A DNA stretch of 64,000 nt from a virus. The stretch's first letter is position 1. Each line of letters starts with the position of its first letter. The position numbers were made by a program, and so were the translations under genes. Under the pieces are notes generated by a model. It saw nothing but the letters and a program-made list of their open reading frames with translations. It was not told where the DNA came from and did no database searches. This document shows, one piece after another, positions 50,361-62,060 of this stretch. Location of the stretch: IMG/VR virus record IMGVR_UViG_3300030450_002944, positions 17,308 through 81,307 of that record; one strand, written 5' to 3'.

Positions 50361-50863
50361 TGCCTAAGAATTATCCAGAGGAAGTAAAATTAGCCGCTTT
50401 AGAATTGTATTTAGAAAACAAGACTGGAGCTGAAATTGCAGATTCTATTAATAAGCAATTTGAACTAGAGGTAAAAGCTCCAACTATATATGCTTGGGCA
50501 AGACAATATAATTGGAAAGGCGAAAATGCAGCTATGTCAACAAAAGCAAAAGAGATAGTTAAAGAGAAACAGAGTCAACGACTTGCTAGAATTCAAACTG
50601 AACATCTAGATGTGTATCAAGGGGTTAGAGAAAAAGCAAGTTCTGAATTAGAAGGTTTAGAATTTGAGAGAGCCTTTGAGGCAGTTAAAGCTTTAGACAT
50701 AGGAATACAAGGAGAACGGAAAACTATTGAGGGTCTGGTAAACTTACAATTCGTTCAAGACGTTCTTAATGTATTAGTTGAAGAAATATCAGATCAAGAC
50801 GTATTAACCAAAGTAGCCAGTAAATTAAGAACTCTGGTACAGGAGAGAGATGACATCCAATAA
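50360..50863 (+). CDS. terS: Terminase small subunit (HTH)
   Basis: N-terminal HTH (EIA...TIYAW....W) immediately upstream of TerL. Confidence 0.65.
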   Translation: MPKNYPEEVKLAALELYLENKTGAEIADSINKQFELEVKAPTIYAWARQYNWKGENAAMSTKAKEIVKEKQSQRLARIQTEHLDVYQGVREKASSELEGLEFERAFEAVKALDIGIQGERKTIEGLVNLQFVQDVLNVLVEEISDQDVLTKVASKLRTLVQERDDIQ

Positions 50864-52511
50864 AAAACAACAAGAAGCATTAACATTTCAAGATGCCTTC
50901 AGTAAATTAGCAGAAGGATTAACTACTGGTAATGTTAGTTATAAAGTCGGTAGCTTTTATGAATTTCTTAGAGACATTTGGTCACAAAGTTTTGATAATC
51001 CTGAATATTTTGGAGCTTGGCATGTGGGGGTTTTAGCAGATGATATCGAAGAATGTTTAGAAACAGGTAAAAATTATGTTGCAATACTACCACGTTTCCA
51101 TTTTAAGTCTACAATTTTAGGACATGCTTTCAGTGTTTGGAGACTTTTGAAGGCTAAAAGAGATTGTTCAGTATTATATTTATCATATAGTGATGGAATG
51201 GCTAGATATCATTTATCTGAAATAAATAAAACTGTTTCAAGGAATCCTGTATTAATGGATTTAATGGATAACAGGTCACCAAAAGCTGATTATTCTTTTA
51301 GATATTATATTAATAAGAAACCAATGGAGATTATGCATGGTGGATTATTCTCTTTCAAAAGAGGTATGCATGTTAATGGAGCATTAATTGCTGATGACGT
51401 ATTGCGTGATCCGGAAAATCCTTTAAATACTGGACAAATAACAAAAGTTGAAGATCATTTTATGACAGAAAGTTTGTTTATTCCTTTGAAAGGTGTACCA
51501 GTAATTGTATTGGGTACTCCAATGATGCCCGGAGACTTATTAACCAACTTGCAGAAAGATGATAGATTTAAATCAAGAGTATTACCAGCTCTTGACCCAA
51601 CACCTACTAGAAGAGTGTTGATGCCTGAGTTATACAATGAGGAATGGTTATTACAACAACAAGAAGCAAGACCAAAATCATTTGCTTCAGAGTTTTTGTT
51701 GCAACCTCATTTTGCAACTGAAGCATATTTTAATGAAGAGGATGTAGTTAAGTGTGAGTCAGAAGACTTAAGAAGTGCTTCTGCACATCAAACATTTAAA
51801 ATGGAAGCTGGAGATCAACTATTTGCTGGGTTTGACGTAGGTAAAAAACGACACCCATCTCATTTAGTTATATTCAGAAGAAGAGGCGATAAGATAGAAC
51901 AAGTACATCAATCATGGTTAGATGGATGGAATTATTCAGATCAAATTCAATATTTGAATGAAGTCGCTGAAAATTATAGTTTAGAGAAGGGATATATAGA
52001 TAATACAAGAGGAGAGCTAGAAGACAGAGGATTAGATACTGTATGGCATTCGATGACTTTTTCACAAAAGAGTAAGAGAACTATGGCACAAATCTTTGAA
52101 GAGTATGTTCATTCGGGTAACTTAAAGTTAATAAAAGATGAAAGACAGAAAGGACAAATTCTGTCGGTGAGTAATGACTTAAAAGCTCCTGAAACCCCAA
52201 TGGGACATGGAGATGCATTCTTTTCGATTGCAATGGCATTACAAGCATGTTATGAAACAACTATCTATAGATACGAAAGTTTGGGAAGCGTTACTGATTG
52301 GCTTGATGCAGTGTCCCCTGAAGAGAAGAATTCAATCAAAGAAGAAGCAAAAGTTCCAGATCTGTCAAAATGGACAGGAAATGAGTATAATAAAGATAAG
52401 GAACAAAATCAAAAAGCACCCAACCCATCATGTGATGAAATGGTATGTATGCCTAATTTTTGGGTAAAAGAAAAAAATCTATGTCTGTATTGTGGATACA
52501 GAGGAGGATAA
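50850..52511 (+). CDS. terL: Terminase large subunit
   Basis: LPRFHFKST Walker A variant, LIADD, LGTP, FAGFDVG, HGDAFFS nuclease motif. Confidence 0.9.
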   Translation: MTSNKKQQEALTFQDAFSKLAEGLTTGNVSYKVGSFYEFLRDIWSQSFDNPEYFGAWHVGVLADDIEECLETGKNYVAILPRFHFKSTILGHAFSVWRLLKAKRDCSVLYLSYSDGMARYHLSEINKTVSRNPVLMDLMDNRSPKADYSFRYYINKKPMEIMHGGLFSFKRGMHVNGALIADDVLRDPENPLNTGQITKVEDHFMTESLFIPLKGVPVIVLGTPMMPGDLLTNLQKDDRFKSRVLPALDPTPTRRVLMPELYNEEWLLQQQEARPKSFASEFLLQPHFATEAYFNEEDVVKCESEDLRSASAHQTFKMEAGDQLFAGFDVGKKRHPSHLVIFRRRGDKIEQVHQSWLDGWNYSDQIQYLNEVAENYSLEKGYIDNTRGELEDRGLDTVWHSMTFSQKSKRTMAQIFEEYVHSGNLKLIKDERQKGQILSVSNDLKAPETPMGHGDAFFSIAMALQACYETTIYRYESLGSVTDWLDAVSPEEKNSIKEEAKVPDLSKWTGNEYNKDKEQNQKAPNPSCDEMVCMPNFWVKEKNLCLYCGYRGG

Positions 52512-52526
52512 TAAGGAAGGAACAAA

Positions 52527-54407
52527 ATGGTGACACAATTAACCCCGCAAGCCGAAACAGTCGCAACGAGTCGATATTATTTAAAAAATGAAGATAATGA
52601 AGTTATTGAAACTGCCGAAGAAATGTTTAAAAGAGTCGGACAGGCTATAGCTAAGATTGATATGCAGTATGGACAAATGGATGCTAATGCAGCATTAACA
52701 GCTATCGATTTTACAAGTATGATGAGTGAATTAAAGTTTATCCCTAATTCACCAACATTAATGAATGCAGGTACTGATCAAGGAACTTTATCAGCTTGCT
52801 TCGTGTTACCTTTAGAAGACAGCATGGAAGATATAATGAAAGCTGCTCATGACATAGCAATGGTACAAAAGTTTGGAGGAGGTACAGGATTTGCTCTTAG
52901 TAAGCTAAGACCAAGAGGAGATCGGATAAAAACTACTCATGGAATTGCTTGTGGACCTATTCAAGTGTTGAAGACACTTTCAAGAGTTTCTTCTATGATA
53001 ACTCAAGGTGGAAAGAGAGATGGAGCAAATATGGCAGTAATGTCTGTATACCATCCTGATATTCTTGAGTTTATTGAATGTAAAAAAGTCGAAGGTGAGA
53101 TACATAACTTTAATATTTCTGTTGGGGTAGACTCTAACTTTATGAAAGCAGTAGAATCTAATGCTGACTACAATTTAATAAATCCAAAAAGTAATGAAAT
53201 AACTGGACAATTAAATGCTAGAGAAGTATTTAACAAGATTATTTATGGGGCTTGGAGAAATGGTGAGCCGGGAATGATATTCTTAGACAATGTTAACAAA
53301 GATAATAATGTAATAGAAGAATATGGTGAAATGATTGCAACTAATCCTTGTGGCGAACAACCATTATTAGGAAATGAATCATGTAATTTAGGTTCAATCA
53401 ACCTAGCTAAGTTCTATCACGAAGATCATCATGATGTAGATTGGAAGAATCTAGAAAAGGTTGTAAAAACATCAGTCCATTTCTTAGATAATGTAATTGA
53501 TGCGAATAAGTATGCGACACCAGAAATAGAGAAAATGACTAAAGCTACTAGAAAGATAGGTTTAGGTGTTATGGGATTCGCAGATTTGCTAATTCAGCTG
53601 AAAATTAAGTATAATAGTATAGAGGGACGTAAATTAGGTAAAGATATTATGTCCTTTATTAGAAAAATAGCTGATGCACAGTCAATAAAATTAGCAAAAG
53701 AACGTGGTACTTTTCCTGCATGGGATAAAAGTAACTATGGAGAAGATGAAAAATATAGAAATTCTTGTAGGTTGACTGTTGCTCCTACAGGAACAATATC
53801 TATGATAGCTGATACTTCTAGTGGAATTGAGCCAACATTTGCTTTGGCTTGGAAGAAGTCGAATATACTAGAAGGACAGACTTTATATTATGTAAACAAA
53901 TATTTTGAGAGAGATGCTAAAGCACATGACTTCTATTCAGAAGATTTAATGGAACATTTATCTCAGGGAGGTTCTTTAGAATCAAGAGAAGATGTACCAC
54001 CATGGGCTAAAGAAATATACATTACAGCTCCAGAAATTTCTGCAGAGGATCACGTTGCGATGCAGTCAGCTTTTCAGGAAGATTGTGATTCAGGTATCTC
54101 AAAGACAATTAATTTTCCTAATGAAGCGACCCTCGCTGATGTTGAGTCGGCTTACCTATCTGCTTGGAATCTTGGTTGTAAAGGTATTACTGTTTATAGG
54201 GCAGGAAGTAGAGAAAAAGAAGTTCTGGTTAAAGGGACTAAAGACAAAAAAGAGGAAGAATTAGACGATCAATTAAGTTTTTTTGACTCAATGGAAGCAC
54301 CAGTTAAAGCTATGGAGTCAGATTGTTGTGATTCTCCTCAAGTAATAATGGAATCAGGTTGTAAAACCTGTAAAAGTTGTGGTTGGAGTGCTTGCCACAT
54401 AGCTTAA
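52527..54407 (+). CDS. nrdJ: Class II (B12-dependent) ribonucleotide reductase
   Basis: PNSPTLMNAG, SACFV, TNPCGEQPL, APTGT; no beta-subunit gene nearby. Confidence 0.9.
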   Translation: MVTQLTPQAETVATSRYYLKNEDNEVIETAEEMFKRVGQAIAKIDMQYGQMDANAALTAIDFTSMMSELKFIPNSPTLMNAGTDQGTLSACFVLPLEDSMEDIMKAAHDIAMVQKFGGGTGFALSKLRPRGDRIKTTHGIACGPIQVLKTLSRVSSMITQGGKRDGANMAVMSVYHPDILEFIECKKVEGEIHNFNISVGVDSNFMKAVESNADYNLINPKSNEITGQLNAREVFNKIIYGAWRNGEPGMIFLDNVNKDNNVIEEYGEMIATNPCGEQPLLGNESCNLGSINLAKFYHEDHHDVDWKNLEKVVKTSVHFLDNVIDANKYATPEIEKMTKATRKIGLGVMGFADLLIQLKIKYNSIEGRKLGKDIMSFIRKIADAQSIKLAKERGTFPAWDKSNYGEDEKYRNSCRLTVAPTGTISMIADTSSGIEPTFALAWKKSNILEGQTLYYVNKYFERDAKAHDFYSEDLMEHLSQGGSLESREDVPPWAKEIYITAPEISAEDHVAMQSAFQEDCDSGISKTINFPNEATLADVESAYLSAWNLGCKGITVYRAGSREKEVLVKGTKDKKEEELDDQLSFFDSMEAPVKAMESDCCDSPQVIMESGCKTCKSCGWSACHIA

Positions 54408-54891: not shown

Positions 54892-56586
54892 ATGGCTAAA
54901 TTATCAGAATTTCTTCCAGATGTACCTCAAGTAGCTCAGACTATTTCAAGTTTGAACGAGCAGATAAACATGCTGCAGATTATGAAATCGACTGGAGATA
55001 GTGGACAAGCTCCTACTATTGGGTTGGATCATGTAGTTAATACATGGGTTCGACATCAAATGGCATATCGCCAACAACTTGTAATGGATTTACAGACTAT
55101 TACTTTTTCTGTACAAGAAATAAGAGGTCCATTAACACATATTACAGGTGAAGTATTTAGACGAGGACTAAAGCTTGTCCCATCTGTAAAAAATCCAGAT
55201 AAAAGTCAGTTAACTAGATTTAATAAATTTTTTGCTGATGCTAACGTATTTGATCAAAGTTTAGAAGAAGTTCTACGACAATTCCATTATGATGTTAACT
55301 CTATTGATGATGGATTTTTATACATGGCTAAAGAGTATGAAGAATTATCAGATGGAAAACTAGGGTCTAAAGTAAAAGAAATACGAAGATTAAATCCTGC
55401 TCTAGTTGAATTTGACTTAGACGCTGCAGGATTACCAAAAAATGCTCATTTTGTCTGTCCATTAGATAGAACAGATGTAGCTGAAGAACCGGGTAAATCT
55501 AAAAAAGGATATGACAGAATCCCTGCGATGTATAAATATTATCACAGGAATCAACATATGTACTTAACTGATTCAGAAATTATACATTTATCTAAATTCT
55601 CACCTTCTGAAACTTATGGTTGGTCACCTATATTAACAGTATTTGAAAAAGCTCTTACCTTAATTGGTATGGATAAAAACTTATATAGGTATTTCTTTGA
55701 AAGAAAAATGCCAGCTTCTATGATCATGGTAACTACTGATGATCCTGAAAGCTTAAGAAGAGAACGAGCTCATATAGCAGCTCAAACTAGACTTGATCCA
55801 AACTTTATTCCTATGGTAGCAGTATCATCTAGGAACAATAGAGGTAGAGTTGATATGGTAAGATTATTCCACACTCTTCAAGAGATGGATTATATGCCAG
55901 TTAAACAAGAAATTAGAGAGAGAATTGCTTCTATGTGGGGAGTATCACCAACGTGGCAAGGTACGCCTGAAGCTTTTGGTGGATTATCAGCTACTACGCA
56001 ACAATTAACTGTAATGAGTAGAGTAGTTGAATCAGATCAACGATTATTTCATGACAAAGTATTCCCACAATTATTAAAAGCATTCGGTGTTACGGATTGG
56101 AAACTTGAACTTCCTACTCCTGAAGAAAAAGCTGAAGCAACTATAATTGCTCAGACTCAACAGAAAGTTGCAATTGCTAGTCAATTAGCACAAATGGGCT
56201 TTAGTGTTGAACTTAAGGATAAAGAAGAAGTAGATATGAAAGAACTTGAGTTTGTAGTTAGTGGAGATATGGTTCCACAAGCACGAATGCAAGGTGAACA
56301 ACAAGCAATGCAATTAGAACAACAGCAACAACAAATTGAACAGGCTAAACAGCAAGCTGAGATGGCTCAGATGCAAGCTGCTATTCAAGAAGGTGGTGGA
56401 GAAGAAGATGAAGAAGAAGAAGAAGGTATGGAGAAAAGTTTAGAGAAGAGTAAATATGTTGCTCATAGAAATATAGGAGAGTTATTGGGAACTGATCATG
56501 ATACTAAAAAAGCAGAAGATGAAGATGAGTGGGAAGAAGAAGAAAGAGACCCCATTCCAGAAGATTGGGAACATGAAGACGATTAG
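54892..56586 (+). CDS. Portal protein
   Basis: EIIH......YGWSPI, YF.....P, I...WGVSP motifs; near terminase. Confidence 0.85.
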   Translation: MAKLSEFLPDVPQVAQTISSLNEQINMLQIMKSTGDSGQAPTIGLDHVVNTWVRHQMAYRQQLVMDLQTITFSVQEIRGPLTHITGEVFRRGLKLVPSVKNPDKSQLTRFNKFFADANVFDQSLEEVLRQFHYDVNSIDDGFLYMAKEYEELSDGKLGSKVKEIRRLNPALVEFDLDAAGLPKNAHFVCPLDRTDVAEEPGKSKKGYDRIPAMYKYYHRNQHMYLTDSEIIHLSKFSPSETYGWSPILTVFEKALTLIGMDKNLYRYFFERKMPASMIMVTTDDPESLRRERAHIAAQTRLDPNFIPMVAVSSRNNRGRVDMVRLFHTLQEMDYMPVKQEIRERIASMWGVSPTWQGTPEAFGGLSATTQQLTVMSRVVESDQRLFHDKVFPQLLKAFGVTDWKLELPTPEEKAEATIIAQTQQKVAIASQLAQMGFSVELKDKEEVDMKELEFVVSGDMVPQARMQGEQQAMQLEQQQQQIEQAKQQAEMAQMQAAIQEGGGEEDEEEEEGMEKSLEKSKYVAHRNIGELLGTDHDTKKAEDEDEWEEEERDPIPEDWEHEDD

Positions 56587-56594
56587 GAGATAAG

Positions 56595-59500
56595 ATGACT
56601 TGGTTTGAAAAACAAGGAAGAGAAGGTTTAATTCCTAAAAAAGTTTCTGAAACTGTCCATCCAAAAGAAGGGCTTCCATTTGAAAGACTTAGTACAGTAT
56701 ATGTCAAGCCTGAAGTCCCAGACTTTGTAAATGATTGGTTAGAAGATTTTGATTCAAAAACACCAGTCTATTTAGTTGGAGGTTCAGTTAGAGATTCATT
56801 ATTAGGAGAAACCCCAAAAGATATAGATGTAATTACTTTCCAACCAAAAGAAGATATAGAAGCGAGTCTAAAAAATTCTAAAACGAAATTCTATCAAGGT
56901 GGAAAAAATTTACCTAACTTACTTACTGCCAATCTAGGCAAGGATCAATTAATTGATATTGTAAGTATGGATACAGATATAGGATCTGAGCTAGTAAGAA
57001 GAGATTTCACAATAAATGCTATGGCTCAAAGACCAGACGGTGAGATTATAGATCCATTTGGGGGACGAAAAGATTTAAAAGAAGGTGTTTTAAGATCTCC
57101 AAAAGATGATAGTGATAAGGTATTTGAAGATGATCCTTTAAGAATGCTTAGAGCAGCTAGATTTATTGGTGATTTAAACTTAAAACCTCATAGTTCTGTA
57201 ACTCAAGCTATCCAAAAACATAAAGATTTATTATCAAATCTTCCAAAAGAACGTATAGGTATGGAATTTGGAAGAATATTATATTCTAAAGATCCAATAT
57301 CTGGATTAAAATTCTTAAAAGATAATGACATGTTAAAATATATTGACCCAGCTTTACAAAGAATGGTTGGATTTGTTCAAAATATAGAAGGGCATGACTA
57401 TGATGTTTGGAATCACACACTTAAATCCTTAGAACATCATATAACTAAAGATAAAAAAAGTCCAGACTTAGCTACTAGACTAGGAATTTTATATCACAAT
57501 GTAGGTAAGCCTGCAACAGCTAATTCTAATAATAGCAATTTTGATAATTATGAATCTATTGGAGCACAAATTGTAGAAGAAAGCCTTAATTCTTTACGAC
57601 TACCTTCTGATATGATAGATACTGTTAGAAAGTTAGTACAACACCATACTTCTGCAAAGACTGCAAAAACTGAAGGTGATCATAGAAGAGTACAACTGAA
57701 GTTAAGACATGACTTAAACAAACTTAATTATGTAGCAACTGCTCATGAAGTAGGAAAAGAAGGTAATGTAAATGCCGACACTTCTCATATAGTTGAATTT
57801 CAAGACACTATTGATAAATTAGATCCTGTATCAGCTGAAGGTGAGGGTTCTTCAAAACTTTCCCCATTATCTGGAAAAGAGATTATGGACGCATTAAATA
57901 TTGTTCCTAATAAAAAAGGTGGGGGTGAAAGAATTGGCAAGATAAAAGACTTCTTAGACAATCTAGTTGTTGAAGGTGAACTAAAACAATCTGATAAAGA
58001 AGGAGCTTTAGAAAGAGCTAAACAGTATCATTCTACATTCACTATGAAGTCTACTGATATTTTAAAAGGTTGGCTAAATATATTGAAAGACGAGGATATT
58101 ACAGGTGAGGCATTTGCAGGTCATACAGAAGATGCAGATGGTAATTTAGTATTTGATGCAAGTAAAAAGAAGCAAAAACAAGAAGTAGCTGATTGGCATG
58201 CTAATTTTGAAAAGCAGAAAAGACTTGATGCGGGATTAATTCCAAAAAAACTTACTGATAAAAATGGTATTGAGGTTACACGTTGGATAAACCCAAAAAA
58301 AGATGATGTGGAAATGGATAAAAATTCCCCAAATTTTGCAATGAGAGATTTAAAACATACTTATGGCACTAGTAATGCGAAAGAATTATGGGAAAAATAT
58401 AAAAAACCTGTTCTAGATAAAAAAACCGGAGAGCATTTAAAAGATGAAAAAACTGGTGAATTAAAGTATACACATAGTATTACACTTCCTCATCCAGAGG
58501 ATTCAAAAAGTTCACATTATCATGGAGAAGGTAGAAAAGGTAAAAAACTTGGCAGTTCTGAGAAATGGATGAACGCTGATAATATACATTTCGATGATGA
58601 TCCTTTTTCATTATATCCAATAAAAGCAACAAATGAAAAGGGGAAGATAATAAAAGATAAAGGTCCAACATATGATCATCCAGAACATACAGCTATGAGA
58701 TGGAAAACAAAAGCAGCTGGAGTCACAGCCATATATATGAGAAAAGATCCGTTAAATGATGCTTTAGAAGCAGAATATAAAAAAGATAATCCAGCCTTAG
58801 AGGCAATAATGACAGGTTTAATGTTTAAAAGTGGGATTAGAGTAGGTAATCCTGCCGATGCTAAAGAATTATTAGCAGCTCTAGATAAACCTGCTTCATT
58901 TGGAGCCTCTTCTTTACAAAAACAACATCTTAGGATTGATGGGGATAAGATTTACCATAAATTTCCGGGTAAGAAAAAGACGATGCAAGAAGCTCCCGAA
59001 CCTATAGTTGATGCAAATTTAGCAAAAGCATTGACTAAGATAATGAAAAACAAAAAAGATGATGATTTTATATTTCAAAAAGATAATGGGGTGATTGTTA
59101 ATGAAGGAAGCACTCAAAAATGGCATAATAAAGCAATGAAAATTCATCCGGATAATCCAGTTACTAATCATAATTTTAGAACTTTCGTTGGAACAAGTAT
59201 GGCAGTAAATAATGTAGCTGACTTTCTTAATAATCCAGAGGTTATAAAAGAGCTTGATAAAACAAATAAACTTCCAATTAAAACTAAAGGCGAGTTTAAG
59301 GATTTTACACATAGAATGGCAATTGATTCAGCTAAACAATTAAGTCATGTTAGTGGAGATGGTAACAAAATCAATCCACAGATAACTTTAGATCATTATA
59401 TAAAGCCAGATACTTTTACATATAAACAATCAGATGGTAAGAATGTATTAATAGAATCCGCAATTGATGATGATAGCACGAAAATATCTAAAGAATATCA

Positions 59501-59984
59501 AGACTTTATGGAAAAAGCTACAGGTAAGAGAAGACTAACTAAAGAAGATATGATTTTAAAAGATCCTGAAAATATGACAAAATCTTTAGATGGTAAAGAA
59601 TTCGACCCTACTAGAAAAAAGGAAAAAGATATAGATACATATTTTGAAAACAGGAAAGAAAAAGAAGAAGATAGGAACTATGGGCTAGATAAAATCCCAG
59701 CTCATATGAGACCTAGACCTAAATATTTCGCAAAAACATGGATTGAAGATTTAGCAGAGAAGGGCTTCCAAGCTCCCATAGTTAAATCTATTAGTCCAGA
59801 TGGATCCAAAATGTGGTTCATTGAAGGAGGTACAGACTTTGTAGCATCATTAGGAGCAAGTGGTGTTGGACATGTTGAGAAAGCAACTTTCCCACCATTA
59901 CCATCCAATGCAACAAATAAAATAAGTTATGCACCTTCAGCTTCCAATAAAAGACGGGAGGAAGATACCGATGAAGAAGAATAA
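56595..59984 (+). CDS. Polyprotein: class II tRNA nucleotidyltransferase-like + degenerate HD + topoisomerase IB
   Basis: VGGSVRD, DID, RRDFTINA, DDPLRMLRAARF; then IRVGN, FPGKK, NFRT, LSH, HYI. Confidence 0.85.
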   Translation: MTWFEKQGREGLIPKKVSETVHPKEGLPFERLSTVYVKPEVPDFVNDWLEDFDSKTPVYLVGGSVRDSLLGETPKDIDVITFQPKEDIEASLKNSKTKFYQGGKNLPNLLTANLGKDQLIDIVSMDTDIGSELVRRDFTINAMAQRPDGEIIDPFGGRKDLKEGVLRSPKDDSDKVFEDDPLRMLRAARFIGDLNLKPHSSVTQAIQKHKDLLSNLPKERIGMEFGRILYSKDPISGLKFLKDNDMLKYIDPALQRMVGFVQNIEGHDYDVWNHTLKSLEHHITKDKKSPDLATRLGILYHNVGKPATANSNNSNFDNYESIGAQIVEESLNSLRLPSDMIDTVRKLVQHHTSAKTAKTEGDHRRVQLKLRHDLNKLNYVATAHEVGKEGNVNADTSHIVEFQDTIDKLDPVSAEGEGSSKLSPLSGKEIMDALNIVPNKKGGGERIGKIKDFLDNLVVEGELKQSDKEGALERAKQYHSTFTMKSTDILKGWLNILKDEDITGEAFAGHTEDADGNLVFDASKKKQKQEVADWHANFEKQKRLDAGLIPKKLTDKNGIEVTRWINPKKDDVEMDKNSPNFAMRDLKHTYGTSNAKELWEKYKKPVLDKKTGEHLKDEKTGELKYTHSITLPHPEDSKSSHYHGEGRKGKKLGSSEKWMNADNIHFDDDPFSLYPIKATNEKGKIIKDKGPTYDHPEHTAMRWKTKAAGVTAIYMRKDPLNDALEAEYKKDNPALEAIMTGLMFKSGIRVGNPADAKELLAALDKPASFGASSLQKQHLRIDGDKIYHKFPGKKKTMQEAPEPIVDANLAKALTKIMKNKKDDDFIFQKDNGVIVNEGSTQKWHNKAMKIHPDNPVTNHNFRTFVGTSMAVNNVADFLNNPEVIKELDKTNKLPIKTKGEFKDFTHRMAIDSAKQLSHVSGDGNKINPQITLDHYIKPDTFTYKQSDGKNVLIESAIDDDSTKISKEYQDFMEKATGKRRLTKEDMILKDPENMTKSLDGKEFDPTRKKEKDIDTYFENRKEKEEDRNYGLDKIPAHMRPRPKYFAKTWIEDLAEKGFQAPIVKSISPDGSKMWFIEGGTDFVASLGASGVGHVEKATFPPLPSNATNKISYAPSASNKRREEDTDEEE

Positions 59985-60837
59985 AACACTTAATAGATTA
60001 TTAAAGTTATTGAAAGAAGGTGGAGCCGCTACGTCAGGTAGTTTTGGAGATGGTGGTGGAACTGTATTTACATCTACAGATTCTGGAATTTTCAATCCAA
60101 CTCATGGTGGAGGGGGTTATAAAAGAAAAGAGCCTCATATAAAGAAGCCTAAAAAGAAAAAGAGTGGGATTGAGAGATTAGATGCCTTCCTTAGAGAATA
60201 TAGTCCTGTACCAAAATCCATGGAAAAATCTTACAATGCTTCAGAAGAACTAATTGAATTAATTAATTGGGTAAGGAAAGCAGAATATCCTACAAGAGGT
60301 TATGGAGGCAACTTAGGTAGAAAACAATTAGACTGGAAGAAACCTAATAGTAATGAAGAACCTCCTAAAGCCTCTGAATTTAAAGGAGAGATTAATCATG
60401 AAGAAGATGAATCGGCAGTGATTGAGCAAAAAGATATGGAACAAAAAATTAGAAATCTAGATGATAATTCTAGAAAAGAAGGACGAGATCATTCAACCGA
60501 AGATGAAACTATGTCTGCAGATACACCTGAATTAGTTACTCAAAAAGGTTTATCTCCATCAGCTGATAGTTCTAACCCTTATAAAAGAGGGGGTAGAATG
60601 GATAACCTTGATGACAATCCTGAAATAAACAAAGACGAGCTAGATAAATTTATAGATAAATATCTAACTATAGATAAAGAAGTGGGTGGTGCAGTTACTC
60701 AAACTACCTTTCAAGAAAGAGAAGTACTTGATGAGGATGAAGATGTAAAAGACGAAGACATGATTGAAGAAGAAAACCATGTAAAAGAAGTAGTGCATCC
60801 TAAAGGACAAAAAGGAACTTACTCTACAGACGACTAA
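59971..60837 (+). CDS. Low-complexity probable head-associated protein
   Basis: GGAGG RBS before ATG at 59971 (track start 59929); hydrophobic-x-K motifs. Confidence 0.6.
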   Translation: MKKNKTLNRLLKLLKEGGAATSGSFGDGGGTVFTSTDSGIFNPTHGGGGYKRKEPHIKKPKKKKSGIERLDAFLREYSPVPKSMEKSYNASEELIELINWVRKAEYPTRGYGGNLGRKQLDWKKPNSNEEPPKASEFKGEINHEEDESAVIEQKDMEQKIRNLDDNSRKEGRDHSTEDETMSADTPELVTQKGLSPSADSSNPYKRGGRMDNLDDNPEINKDELDKFIDKYLTIDKEVGGAVTQTTFQEREVLDEDEDVKDEDMIEEENHVKEVVHPKGQKGTYSTDD

Positions 60838-60911: not shown

Positions 60912-62060
60912 ATGTCAAAGTTTTTCCAATTTATTTTATTATTAGCAATGTTTCCACTCTTATTGCTAGGGTGTGAAAGTATAGAAGAACCAAAGGACAC
61001 GAAGATCGGAATGATATTAGTCGGTCCTAAAAACGATAAGGGTTGGTCTCAAGCTCATTACGAAGGTGGTGAGTATGTAGTTTCTCAACTAGGTGGAGAA
61101 ATGATAACAGTTGATCTTGTAAACCCCGCAGATTCCCCAGACTTAACTATCCCTTCAATTGCCGAAGATATGATCTCTCAAGGAGCATCTATAATTTTTG
61201 CTACTTCAGATGATATGAAAGATGGTATATTAGAAGCTGCAGAGAAATATCCAGACACCGATTTCGTCTGGTCTACAGGAGATAGTGCATTAGTAGTCGG
61301 ACAAGGCTATAAACCTGAATTAAAAAACCTATCTAATGTAATGGGTAAGATGGAATATGGTCAAATGATTGCAGGTTGTGCAGCAGCTATTAAATCTAAA
61401 GAAGGAAAGATTGGTTTTCTTGGTCCATTAGTTAATGATGAGACAAGAAGATTAGCAAATGCTACCTACCTTGGAGCTTTACATTGTGCTGGAGATAAAG
61501 AAATTGATTTCGATGTAACTTGGATTGGATTCTGGTTTCATATTCCGGGCATGACTTTAGATCCAACACAAGTAGTTAATGAATTTTATGACTCTGGTAG
61601 GGATGTTGTAATCTCTCATATAGATACTACTGAAGCCGTAGTTGTTGCAGGACAAAGAGCCGCTGGAGGAGAGGATATATGGGTAGTACCTTACGATTAT
61701 AAAGGAGCTTGTGAACAATCCCCAGAAATTTGTCTAGGAGTAAATTACTTTAATTGGGGCTATGACTATTTAGAACTGGTTGAACTAAGTAACTCAGGTA
61801 AATTTGAAAACAATTGGATTTGGACTGATCCTAACTGGGCTAATTTAGAAGAATCTATTGTAGGTTTTAAATATGGAGATGGTTTAGATCCAAAGGAAAA
61901 AGCTAAAGTAAGTAGCTTTATAACTGAATTAAAAGACGGGCTCAATCTATTTAAAGGACCATTATATTTTGAAGATGACTCAGTATACCTAGAAGAAGGT
62001 AAGGAAGCATCTGATATAGATATATGGTACACCCCAAAACTACTAAAAGGCATCAAATAG
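60912..62060 (+). CDS. BMP-family ABC transporter substrate-binding lipoprotein
   Basis: Signal peptide with LLGC lipobox; GPKNDKGWSQAHYEG, GKIGFLG, WIGFWF. Confidence 0.85.
   Translation: MSKFFQFILLLAMFPLLLLGCESIEEPKDTKIGMILVGPKNDKGWSQAHYEGGEYVVSQLGGEMITVDLVNPADSPDLTIPSIAEDMISQGASIIFATSDDMKDGILEAAEKYPDTDFVWSTGDSALVVGQGYKPELKNLSNVMGKMEYGQMIAGCAAAIKSKEGKIGFLGPLVNDETRRLANATYLGALHCAGDKEIDFDVTWIGFWFHIPGMTLDPTQVVNEFYDSGRDVVISHIDTTEAVVVAGQRAAGGEDIWVVPYDYKGACEQSPEICLGVNYFNWGYDYLELVELSNSGKFENNWIWTDPNWANLEESIVGFKYGDGLDPKEKAKVSSFITELKDGLNLFKGPLYFEDDSVYLEEGKEASDIDIWYTPKLLKGIK

Follow-up and report, generated by a model that had tools for sequence, protein, structure and literature searches.

A viral gene joining a CCA-type nucleotidyltransferase and a type IB topoisomerase to a module shared with portal proteins

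Introduction

Poxviruses carry a type IB topoisomerase (TopoIB) in the virion, which relaxes DNA for early transcription. Among phages, enzymes fused to a portal or to a MuF domain have been interpreted as packaged effectors, in a study that mentions topoisomerase once and CCA enzymes never and that does not cover TopoIB (PMC5512222), while tRNA 3'-end repair has been proposed as the role of phage CCA enzymes (PMC7824862). Here we describe a gene that joins both kinds of enzyme in one protein, encoded immediately after the portal, in a 64,000-nucleotide (nt) stretch of viral DNA (the window), i.e., the final 64 kb of the 81,307-bp IMG/VR virus record IMGVR_UViG_3300030450_002944 (completeness rating 99%). 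An earlier reading of the window, made from its letters without database searches (the sequence-only reading), had proposed a virion-delivered two-enzyme polyprotein acting on tRNA ends and DNA topology. From that interpretation the two-enzyme fusion, the competent-looking enzymes, and the conserved post-portal slot stood, and the MuF and leader-based grounds for delivery fell away. The main new result is a C-terminal module which that reading had missed as a pointer to the capsid. The combination of enzymes had also been described as not known from phages, which holds for the papers that could be searched: these yielded nothing relevant on phage TopoIB or CCA enzymes in virions, on portal-linked TopoIB, or on a CCA-TopoIB fusion.

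A two-enzyme fusion gene directly after the portal

The fusion gene is a single open reading frame (ORF) of 1129 amino acids (aa), laid out as follows:

56595..59984, + strand: fusion gene, encoding the CCA-type nucleotidyltransferase, the TopoIB, and the tail module
56604..56711, + strand: leader 1 (residues 4-39), conserved, at the N-terminus, a long beta-hairpin by prediction
56715..58094, + strand: class II (CCA-type) nucleotidyltransferase with head, neck, and body (residues ~41-500)
58090..59588, + strand: exchangeable cassette of linker, leader 2, and whole TopoIB (residues ~499-998)
58206..58295, + strand: leader 2 (residues 538-567), a predicted beta-hairpin opening the TopoIB N-terminal region
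58296..58694, + strand: TopoIB N-terminal (cap or DNA-binding) region, from family-profile alignment to the Deinococcus and variola N-terminal domains
58695..59474, + strand: TopoIB catalytic domain, from Pfam PF01028, Foldseek, profile, and catalytic pentad
59580..59981, + strand: tail module (residues 996-1129), with a charged helix, a small helix plus four-strand domain, and an acidic end

Its ATG begins 8 nt downstream of the portal stop codon (56584-56586) and is preceded, 5 nt upstream, by an AGGAG at 56585-56589.

This fusion gene is real and conserved, and mis-assembly, which the sequence-only reading had named among its possible refutations, is excluded. Six full-length homologues (1081-1144 aa) were identified in the protein collection, and ~20 IMG/VR contigs share the architecture together with the gene order terL-RNR-orf150-portal-fusion-P5-Bmp-SbcD (RNR, ribonucleotide reductase), the fusion gene immediately following the portal in all ~20 clade members. 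The stretch 57800-59900 was found in 20 marine metagenome runs from 16 studies, with no RNA run listed among the sequencing runs holding it. Contigs from three runs that were not flagged as a possible source of the window (X8, X11, and X13) span the junctions at 58090 and 59589 with 0-2 differences and without joints or loose ends. An assembly artefact joining two genes could be suspected because many metagenome contigs end inside the topoisomerase segment; however, the fusion recurs on ~20 contigs and in 6 protein clusters, and independent runs bridging both junctions refute this explanation, to which we give next to no credence. The union of a CCA enzyme and a TopoIB recognized in the sequence-only reading is thus borne out by one ORF, by Pfam and PHROG domains, and by the six full-length homologues.

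The C-terminal module ends the portal in most relatives

The beta part of the tail module was modeled by AlphaFold2 (AF2) with a predicted local distance difference test (pLDDT) of 81-87, and the module is far better conserved within the clade than the topoisomerase next to it (69-97% vs 29-43% identity). When residues 531-1129 served as HMMER query against 1.8 billion representative proteins, the module was recovered by itself in small proteins, and as the C-terminal part of TopoIB-only proteins, of portals, and of CCA-TopoIB, TopoIB-CCA, and zincin-CCA proteins.

We retrieved 80 related viral loci and labeled their ORFs. The order terL-RNR-orf150-portal-[X]-P5-SbcD-...-MCP (MCP, major capsid protein) was conserved across these loci, and each of them contained the tail module exactly once. 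For 56 of the 80, the module formed the C-terminus of the portal itself, in proteins of 650-700 aa, such as L034:48-2087, with a poly-Q/acidic linker. The other carriers were 8 TopoIB-tail proteins, 3 TopoIB-CCA-tail proteins, 5 small post-portal ORFs, and the CCA-TopoIB-tail proteins of the window clade. Enzyme-tail proteins were encoded directly after a tail-less portal, as in the window:

54892..56586, + strand: portal, tail-less form, 564 aa (PHROG 18178, 4e-36; Pfam Phage_portal match weak)

This PHROG match and the conserved position after it agree with the sequence-only reading, which had called the upstream gene a portal. The window portal ends in a poly-Q/acidic stretch.

In a tree of portal cores (88 rows), no major clade lacked portal-tail forms, and the enzyme forms were distributed over three distinct clades, with the CCA-Topo-tail clade of the window being monophyletic (support 100) and grouping with a portal-tail clade (support 80). 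Hence, on the simplest reading, the tail belonged to the portal in the ancestor, and enzyme cassettes came in between portal body and module on at least three occasions. In addition, the last ~50 residues of the window portal align to the start of the tail region in portal-tail proteins of the sister clade (35% over 52 aa, E 1e-4 in a small search), and the fusion protein holds its own copy of this first tail segment retained by the portal, which suggests, on weak statistics, a partial duplication at the insertion point.

Two further types of ORF were observed around these portals. For the separate small tail ORFs, the stop-to-stop frame overlaps the portal end by 37-235 nt in another frame (L030:811-2861, L036:4350-6420, L063:4352-6438, L103:1385-3435), so that these could reflect a frameshift, either a sequencing error or a programmed one, instead of a separate gene. 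Many portal-tail relatives also encode a 720-920-aa ORF between the portal-tail gene and SbcD (L026:3937-6456, L038:6326-8701, L028:2800-5358, L033:2884-5277, L073:6203-8962, L099:2965-5130), some with a short P5-like stretch; Pfam identified no family in these ORFs, which may represent another cargo or an internal head protein.

The sequence-only reading had based its assignment on the MuF-type head proteins that often occupy the slot after the portal. This basis did not hold, as no PF04233 match was obtained at E 0.1 in a Pfam scan, and the tail was rejected as a MuF relative after comparison with the MuF-like protein of HCTV-5 (hhalign probability 0.2). No match to the tail was found by tblastn against 50,697 phage records, and no usable match in the ESM Atlas. 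A predicted complex of window portal and tail scored 0.00 without controls, and counts neither way.

Among the distant TopoIB relatives, one is a portal-TopoIB fusion (P0069; PHROG portal, 1.5e-22) and another combines TopoIB with a portal-like C-terminal part (P0070), while P0045 and P0052 join TopoIB to M23 or VanY cell-wall hydrolases, and others join it to PrimPol domains. Two metagenome proteins (P0054 and P0013) include an anthrax-lethal-factor-like zincin peptidase, in the arrangements zincin-CCA-tail and TopoIB...zincin; polyvalent proteins have zincin as their hub domain. A probable link to the capsid or portal is thus supported by the C-terminal module, i.e., the portal C-terminus in most relatives, along with the distant portal-TopoIB fusions. 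On balance, we lean towards a reading in which the two enzymes are stored in the head by means of the portal-derived module, and would be carried into the cell together with the DNA.

Both enzymes look catalytically competent

Motif and profile comparison shows residues ~41-500 to be a class II, CCA-adding-type tRNA nucleotidyltransferase whose catalytic carboxylates and nucleotide-template motif are intact. Pfam identified the PolyA_pol head at residues 58-167 (3e-20) and PolyA_pol_RNAbd at 197-254, PHROG 2244 (tRNA nucleotidyltransferase) aligned to residues 57-433 (1.6e-53), and CCA-adding enzymes were matched in the PDB (6ibp and 7otr at 7e-27, 1miv at 2e-21). The class II motifs noted in the sequence-only reading are all present: motif A, with VGGSVRD at 61-67 (GGxVRD) and the DxD aspartates D76 and D78; motif B, R135-R136-D137 (RRD); and motif D, the [E/D]DxxR nucleotide template, D179-D180-P-L-R183. 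Motifs A, B, and D are invariant across the family, and the neck and body region is helical in the model (pLDDT 83-95).

The flexible loop before motif B is required to add the terminal A. In the window enzyme, this loop falls ~6 residues short of that in 1miv, and the customary Arg-Pro signature is missing from it; 74 residues separate motifs A and B, vs 88 in the CCA domains of Topo-CCA-tail relatives, and the HD motif is replaced by HN. With this shortened loop and the HN for HD, the enzyme may add CCA, may be CC-adding, or may have another specificity.

Residues ~538-960 are shown to form a complete TopoIB, with an N-terminal DNA-binding region and a catalytic domain. Pfam Topoisom_I was matched at residues 735-877 (1e-7, 32 bits vs a cut-off of 23.7), and the family profile matched archaeal, Deinococcus, and variola TopoIB in the PDB at 1e-19 to 5e-13. 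The pentad lies where the sequence-only reading had placed it, with R749 (58839-58841), K793 (58971-58973), R862 (59178-59180), H918 (59346-59348), and Y935 (59397-59399), and is invariant in 7 close and 12 distant relatives. In alignments with the TopoIB of Deinococcus, variola, and archaea, the R, K, R, and H fall on catalytic residues, which we take to be R137/K174/R239 of 2f4q, R130/K167/R223 of 2h7f, and the His of 6z01. Taken together with the nucleotidyltransferase motifs, this makes both enzymes of the fusion look catalytically competent.

The same catalytic fold is common to integrases, and the domain could alternatively be a site-specific tyrosine recombinase or a telomere resolvase that does not act as a relaxing topoisomerase, in which case the hypervariability of its cassette (see below) could mirror a shifting site specificity. 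The AF2 model of residues 531-1129 (pLDDT 82; predicted template modeling score, pTM, 0.70) makes this highly improbable. In the VIA comparison, tyrosine recombinases scored Z 10-13, whereas TopoIB structures were clearly higher, at Z 17-19 over 270-295 residues with the TopoIB N-terminal domain included: 19.3 for 1a35 (276 aligned, root-mean-square deviation 3.7), 18.5 for 3m4a, and 17.6 for 2h7f (277 of 314), the alignment to variola pairing model positions 51-448 with chain positions 1-296. This bears out the TopoIB fold that the sequence-only reading had expected of the domain. Foldseek likewise matched 2f4q (1.8e-11) and 2h7f (TMt 0.60), and structural matches to jumbo-phage TopoIB were obtained in BFVD at 1e-11 to 5e-11. 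Finally, Pfam and profile matches were to Topoisom_I only, a Phage_integrase match being sub-threshold. The TopoIB segment had no tblastn match in the 50,697 phage records. Separately, PHROG 23460, annotated as of "unknown function", matched the TopoIB domain of every distant relative scanned (E 1e-6 to 1e-18), and thus appears to be the phage TopoIB family.

An exchangeable topoisomerase cassette

The topoisomerase segment behaves as a cassette within the clade. In two contigs from one metagenome, DNA identity to the window is 97.2% up to 58089 (L012) or 98.0% from 59589 on (L002), and no nucleotide similarity was found between 58089 and 59589 in either of them. Their topoisomerases are 29-38% identical to that of the window at the protein level and keep the full pentad. 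At least three topoisomerase alleles exist in the clade, among them the window type, the L004 type, and the L012/L002 type, and it is in this segment that many metagenome contigs end. Such an exchange between near-identical genomes fits a protein under host-specific pressure that is exposed or host-facing. A 1.5-kb cassette that differs wholly between genomes otherwise 97-98% identical singles out the topoisomerase as a target of diversifying pressure in the sea.

Two leaders and the question of processing

The sequence-only reading had described a related leader ahead of each enzyme. Both strings are present, and both leaders are real conserved elements; their relatedness is marginal at the sequence level, and they are not a demonstrated targeting signal. 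Leader 1 is nearly invariant within the clade and is predicted by AF2, with moderate confidence, to form strands at 13-21 and 29-37 (pLDDT 60-80). Leader 2 is predicted with strands at model positions 19-24 and 30-35 (residues 549-554 and 560-565, pLDDT ~90), and its clade-invariant residues are R543, L548, P550, G558, T562, and W564, the FEKQ of the window not being conserved in relatives. Within the protein, blastp aligned the two leaders at E 0.037, and in searches with leader profiles the other leader was the best or near-best foreign match, with independent E-values of 0.2-2.3 over ~10 residues (GL[IV]PKK core only). In the model, leader 2 is packed in the folded topoisomerase N-terminal region and does not form a free leader, which removes it as an argument for delivery. 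This hairpin may correspond to the first hairpin of the eukaryotic TopoIB cap, a lead drawn from alignment ranges and the human sequence.

We do not claim a common leader family. The N-terminal tag of other Topo-tail proteins (LPxxQRxYI...G.RIY.G..G.YID) matched neither leader significantly, and the leader-1 profile did not find the pre-CCA segments of Topo-CCA-tail proteins.

The repeated leader motif ahead of each enzyme, together with disordered linkers at residues ~500-537 and ~960-1000, invites a variant of head storage in which the head protease or some other protease would cut near leaders or linkers inside the capsid, freeing nucleotidyltransferase, topoisomerase, and tail. A candidate protease exists in a weak XkdF-like ORF near the capsid gene (PHROG 23555, 4e-14; Pfam S78_2 at 4e-4, below cut-off), and the relatives P0054 and P0013 have zincin peptidase domains within their proteins. 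However, both leaders are predicted to be folded hairpins, with leader 2 inside a confident domain, atypical for a cut site, and the similarity between leaders is marginal, so that we consider such processing unlikely.

Gene neighborhood and host

The genes around the fusion, in the order small terminase-like ORF, terL, class II RNR, 150-aa ORF, portal, fusion, P5, Bmp/PnrA lipoprotein, and SbcD-like exonuclease, include:

50850-52511: large terminase
52527-54407: class II (B12-type) RNR, between terminase and portal
59971..60837, + strand: P5, low-complexity, N half basic and C half acidic
60912-62060: Bmp/PnrA-type nucleoside-binding lipoprotein with lipobox, after P5

P5, for which no family was matched in Pfam or PHROG searches, follows the tail module in all syntenic loci compared. 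Its start is more likely the ATG at 59971, with GGGAGG upstream, than 59929, and the resulting 14-nt overlap with the fusion-gene stop suggests translational coupling. RNR and Bmp are kept in most clade relatives, with L009 and L010 having no Bmp. An SU10-type major capsid gene is located at the start of the record.

The window has a G+C content of ~34%, and no tRNA genes were found across the whole 81-kb record. Its virus looks bacterial, based on Shine-Dalgarno sites, the class II CCA enzyme, DnaB, PolA, and the lipobox lipoprotein. Among isolated viruses, the portal matched only the haloarchaeal tailed viruses HCTV-5, HCTV-1, and HVTV-1 (~28% identity); in HCTV-5, the nearest isolate by portal, an ADP-ribosyltransferase and a MuF protein occupy the post-portal slot. 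A tblastn search of the terminase against the 50,697 phage records returned weak matches to two Sinorhizobium phages only, and the phage collection contained no cultured relative of the window lineage.

Storage in the head or action in the cytoplasm

The head-storage reading favored here can be outlined as follows. Insertion of an enzyme cassette would have parted the portal body from its C-terminal module, so that the module now ends the enzyme protein. Since the C-termini of all solved portals point into the capsid, the module would most likely still go to the portal or capsid interior, taking both enzymes along. Both would thereby be brought into the cell along with the DNA, ahead of any phage gene expression, where the nucleotidyltransferase could rebuild damaged 3' ends of host tRNAs, in a virus without tRNA genes of its own, and the topoisomerase could relax the genome, either incoming or packaged, in the manner of the poxvirus TopoIB carried in virions.

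Several points weigh against this outline. Virion presence is deduced here from the genes of an uncultured lineage. The module is covalently tethered in portal-tail relatives, and once detached may not reach the capsid, while an enzyme-tail fusion could be the easiest means of preserving tail expression following an insertion. Full CCA addition by the window enzyme is uncertain, given its shortened loop before motif B. Lastly, head genes are mixed with cytoplasmic or auxiliary-metabolic-type genes (RNR, SbcD, and the Bmp lipoprotein), so that position alone says little and is weak evidence.

Accordingly, it is possible, albeit less probable, that the fusion is an ordinary cytoplasmic enzyme, produced early or late, acting in tRNA repair and in replication or transcription topology, its tail being either a passenger of the insertion that split the portal or cleaved off. 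With RNR, SbcD, and Bmp as neighbors, the fusion lies in a region that is not exclusively structural; descriptions of phage CCA enzymes and of jumbo-phage TopoIBs usually treat them as metabolic or repair genes (PMC7824862); and the protein has no MuF domain. Yet a mere passenger fits poorly with a tail that is better conserved than the topoisomerase, and whose reading frame was preserved at the C-terminus through three independent insertions of enzymes; the direct fusions of TopoIB relatives to portals and to wall hydrolases of the entry type also speak against a purely cytoplasmic role.

A more speculative extension, which we rate as improbable, is that the portal C-terminal module serves as a general loading handle, at least three insertions having placed TopoIB, either unaccompanied or together with a tRNA-end enzyme, at the portal's inner mouth. 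From this position, TopoIB would work on the genome during packaging or exit, serving as a swivel or else gripping or processing the first-exiting end, and the cassette would set strain-specific DNA or host specificity. If true, the packaging or delivery of phage DNA would have a new step, dependent on a topoisomerase. Under head storage more generally, the reuse of one portal end-module three times as an enzyme C-terminus would provide a testable rule for turning cytoplasmic enzymes into capsid cargo.

Comparison with known systems

The window TopoIB shares its fold, two-domain layout, and pentad with those of variola (2h7f and 3igc) and Deinococcus radiodurans (2f4q and 3m4a), at ~17-23% identity. 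Unlike these, it is extended at the N-terminus by ~120 residues, the leader-2 hairpin among them, has 17 residues between His and Tyr, and is fused to other domains. Jumbo phages such as Pseudomonas phage PaBG, Achromobacter phage Motura, phiRSL1, and Lu11 also encode a TopoIB, but theirs are described as stand-alone replication or topology genes (PMC7824862). Similarly, the CCA enzymes of phages (PHROG 2244), e.g., Escherichia phage 4MG and Klebsiella phage KB57, are class II enzymes with ~28-29% identity to the window enzyme over ~390 residues; they are stand-alone proteins of ~400 aa, often in phages with tRNA genes, whereas the window enzyme is fused, begins with an N-terminal hairpin, has a shortened loop, and is encoded by a genome without tRNA genes.

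As to delivery, the N4 virion RNA polymerase, T7 gp14-16, and T4 Alt are large head-stored enzymes delivered with the DNA, as proposed for the window protein; there is no sequence or domain kinship between them, and their packaging has been shown, while that of the window protein is deduced from genes. The closest parallel is offered by the phage-type polyvalent and portal-MuF effectors of Iyer, Burroughs, Anand, de Souza, and Aravind (2017, PMC5512222), in which unrelated enzymes also share one chain, with a portal-terminase module, and are joined to a virion structural element and presumed to be packaged and to reach the host along with the DNA; the zincin domain further connects them to the window relatives P0054 and P0013. 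The window differs from these in that its element is a detached portal C-terminal module of ~130 residues, and not a whole portal or MuF domain. If the fusion is indeed packaged, tailed phages would share with poxviruses a particle-borne type IB topoisomerase, here combined with a tRNA 3'-end repair enzyme, and the virus would arrive armed against both tRNA-targeting defences and DNA-topology problems.

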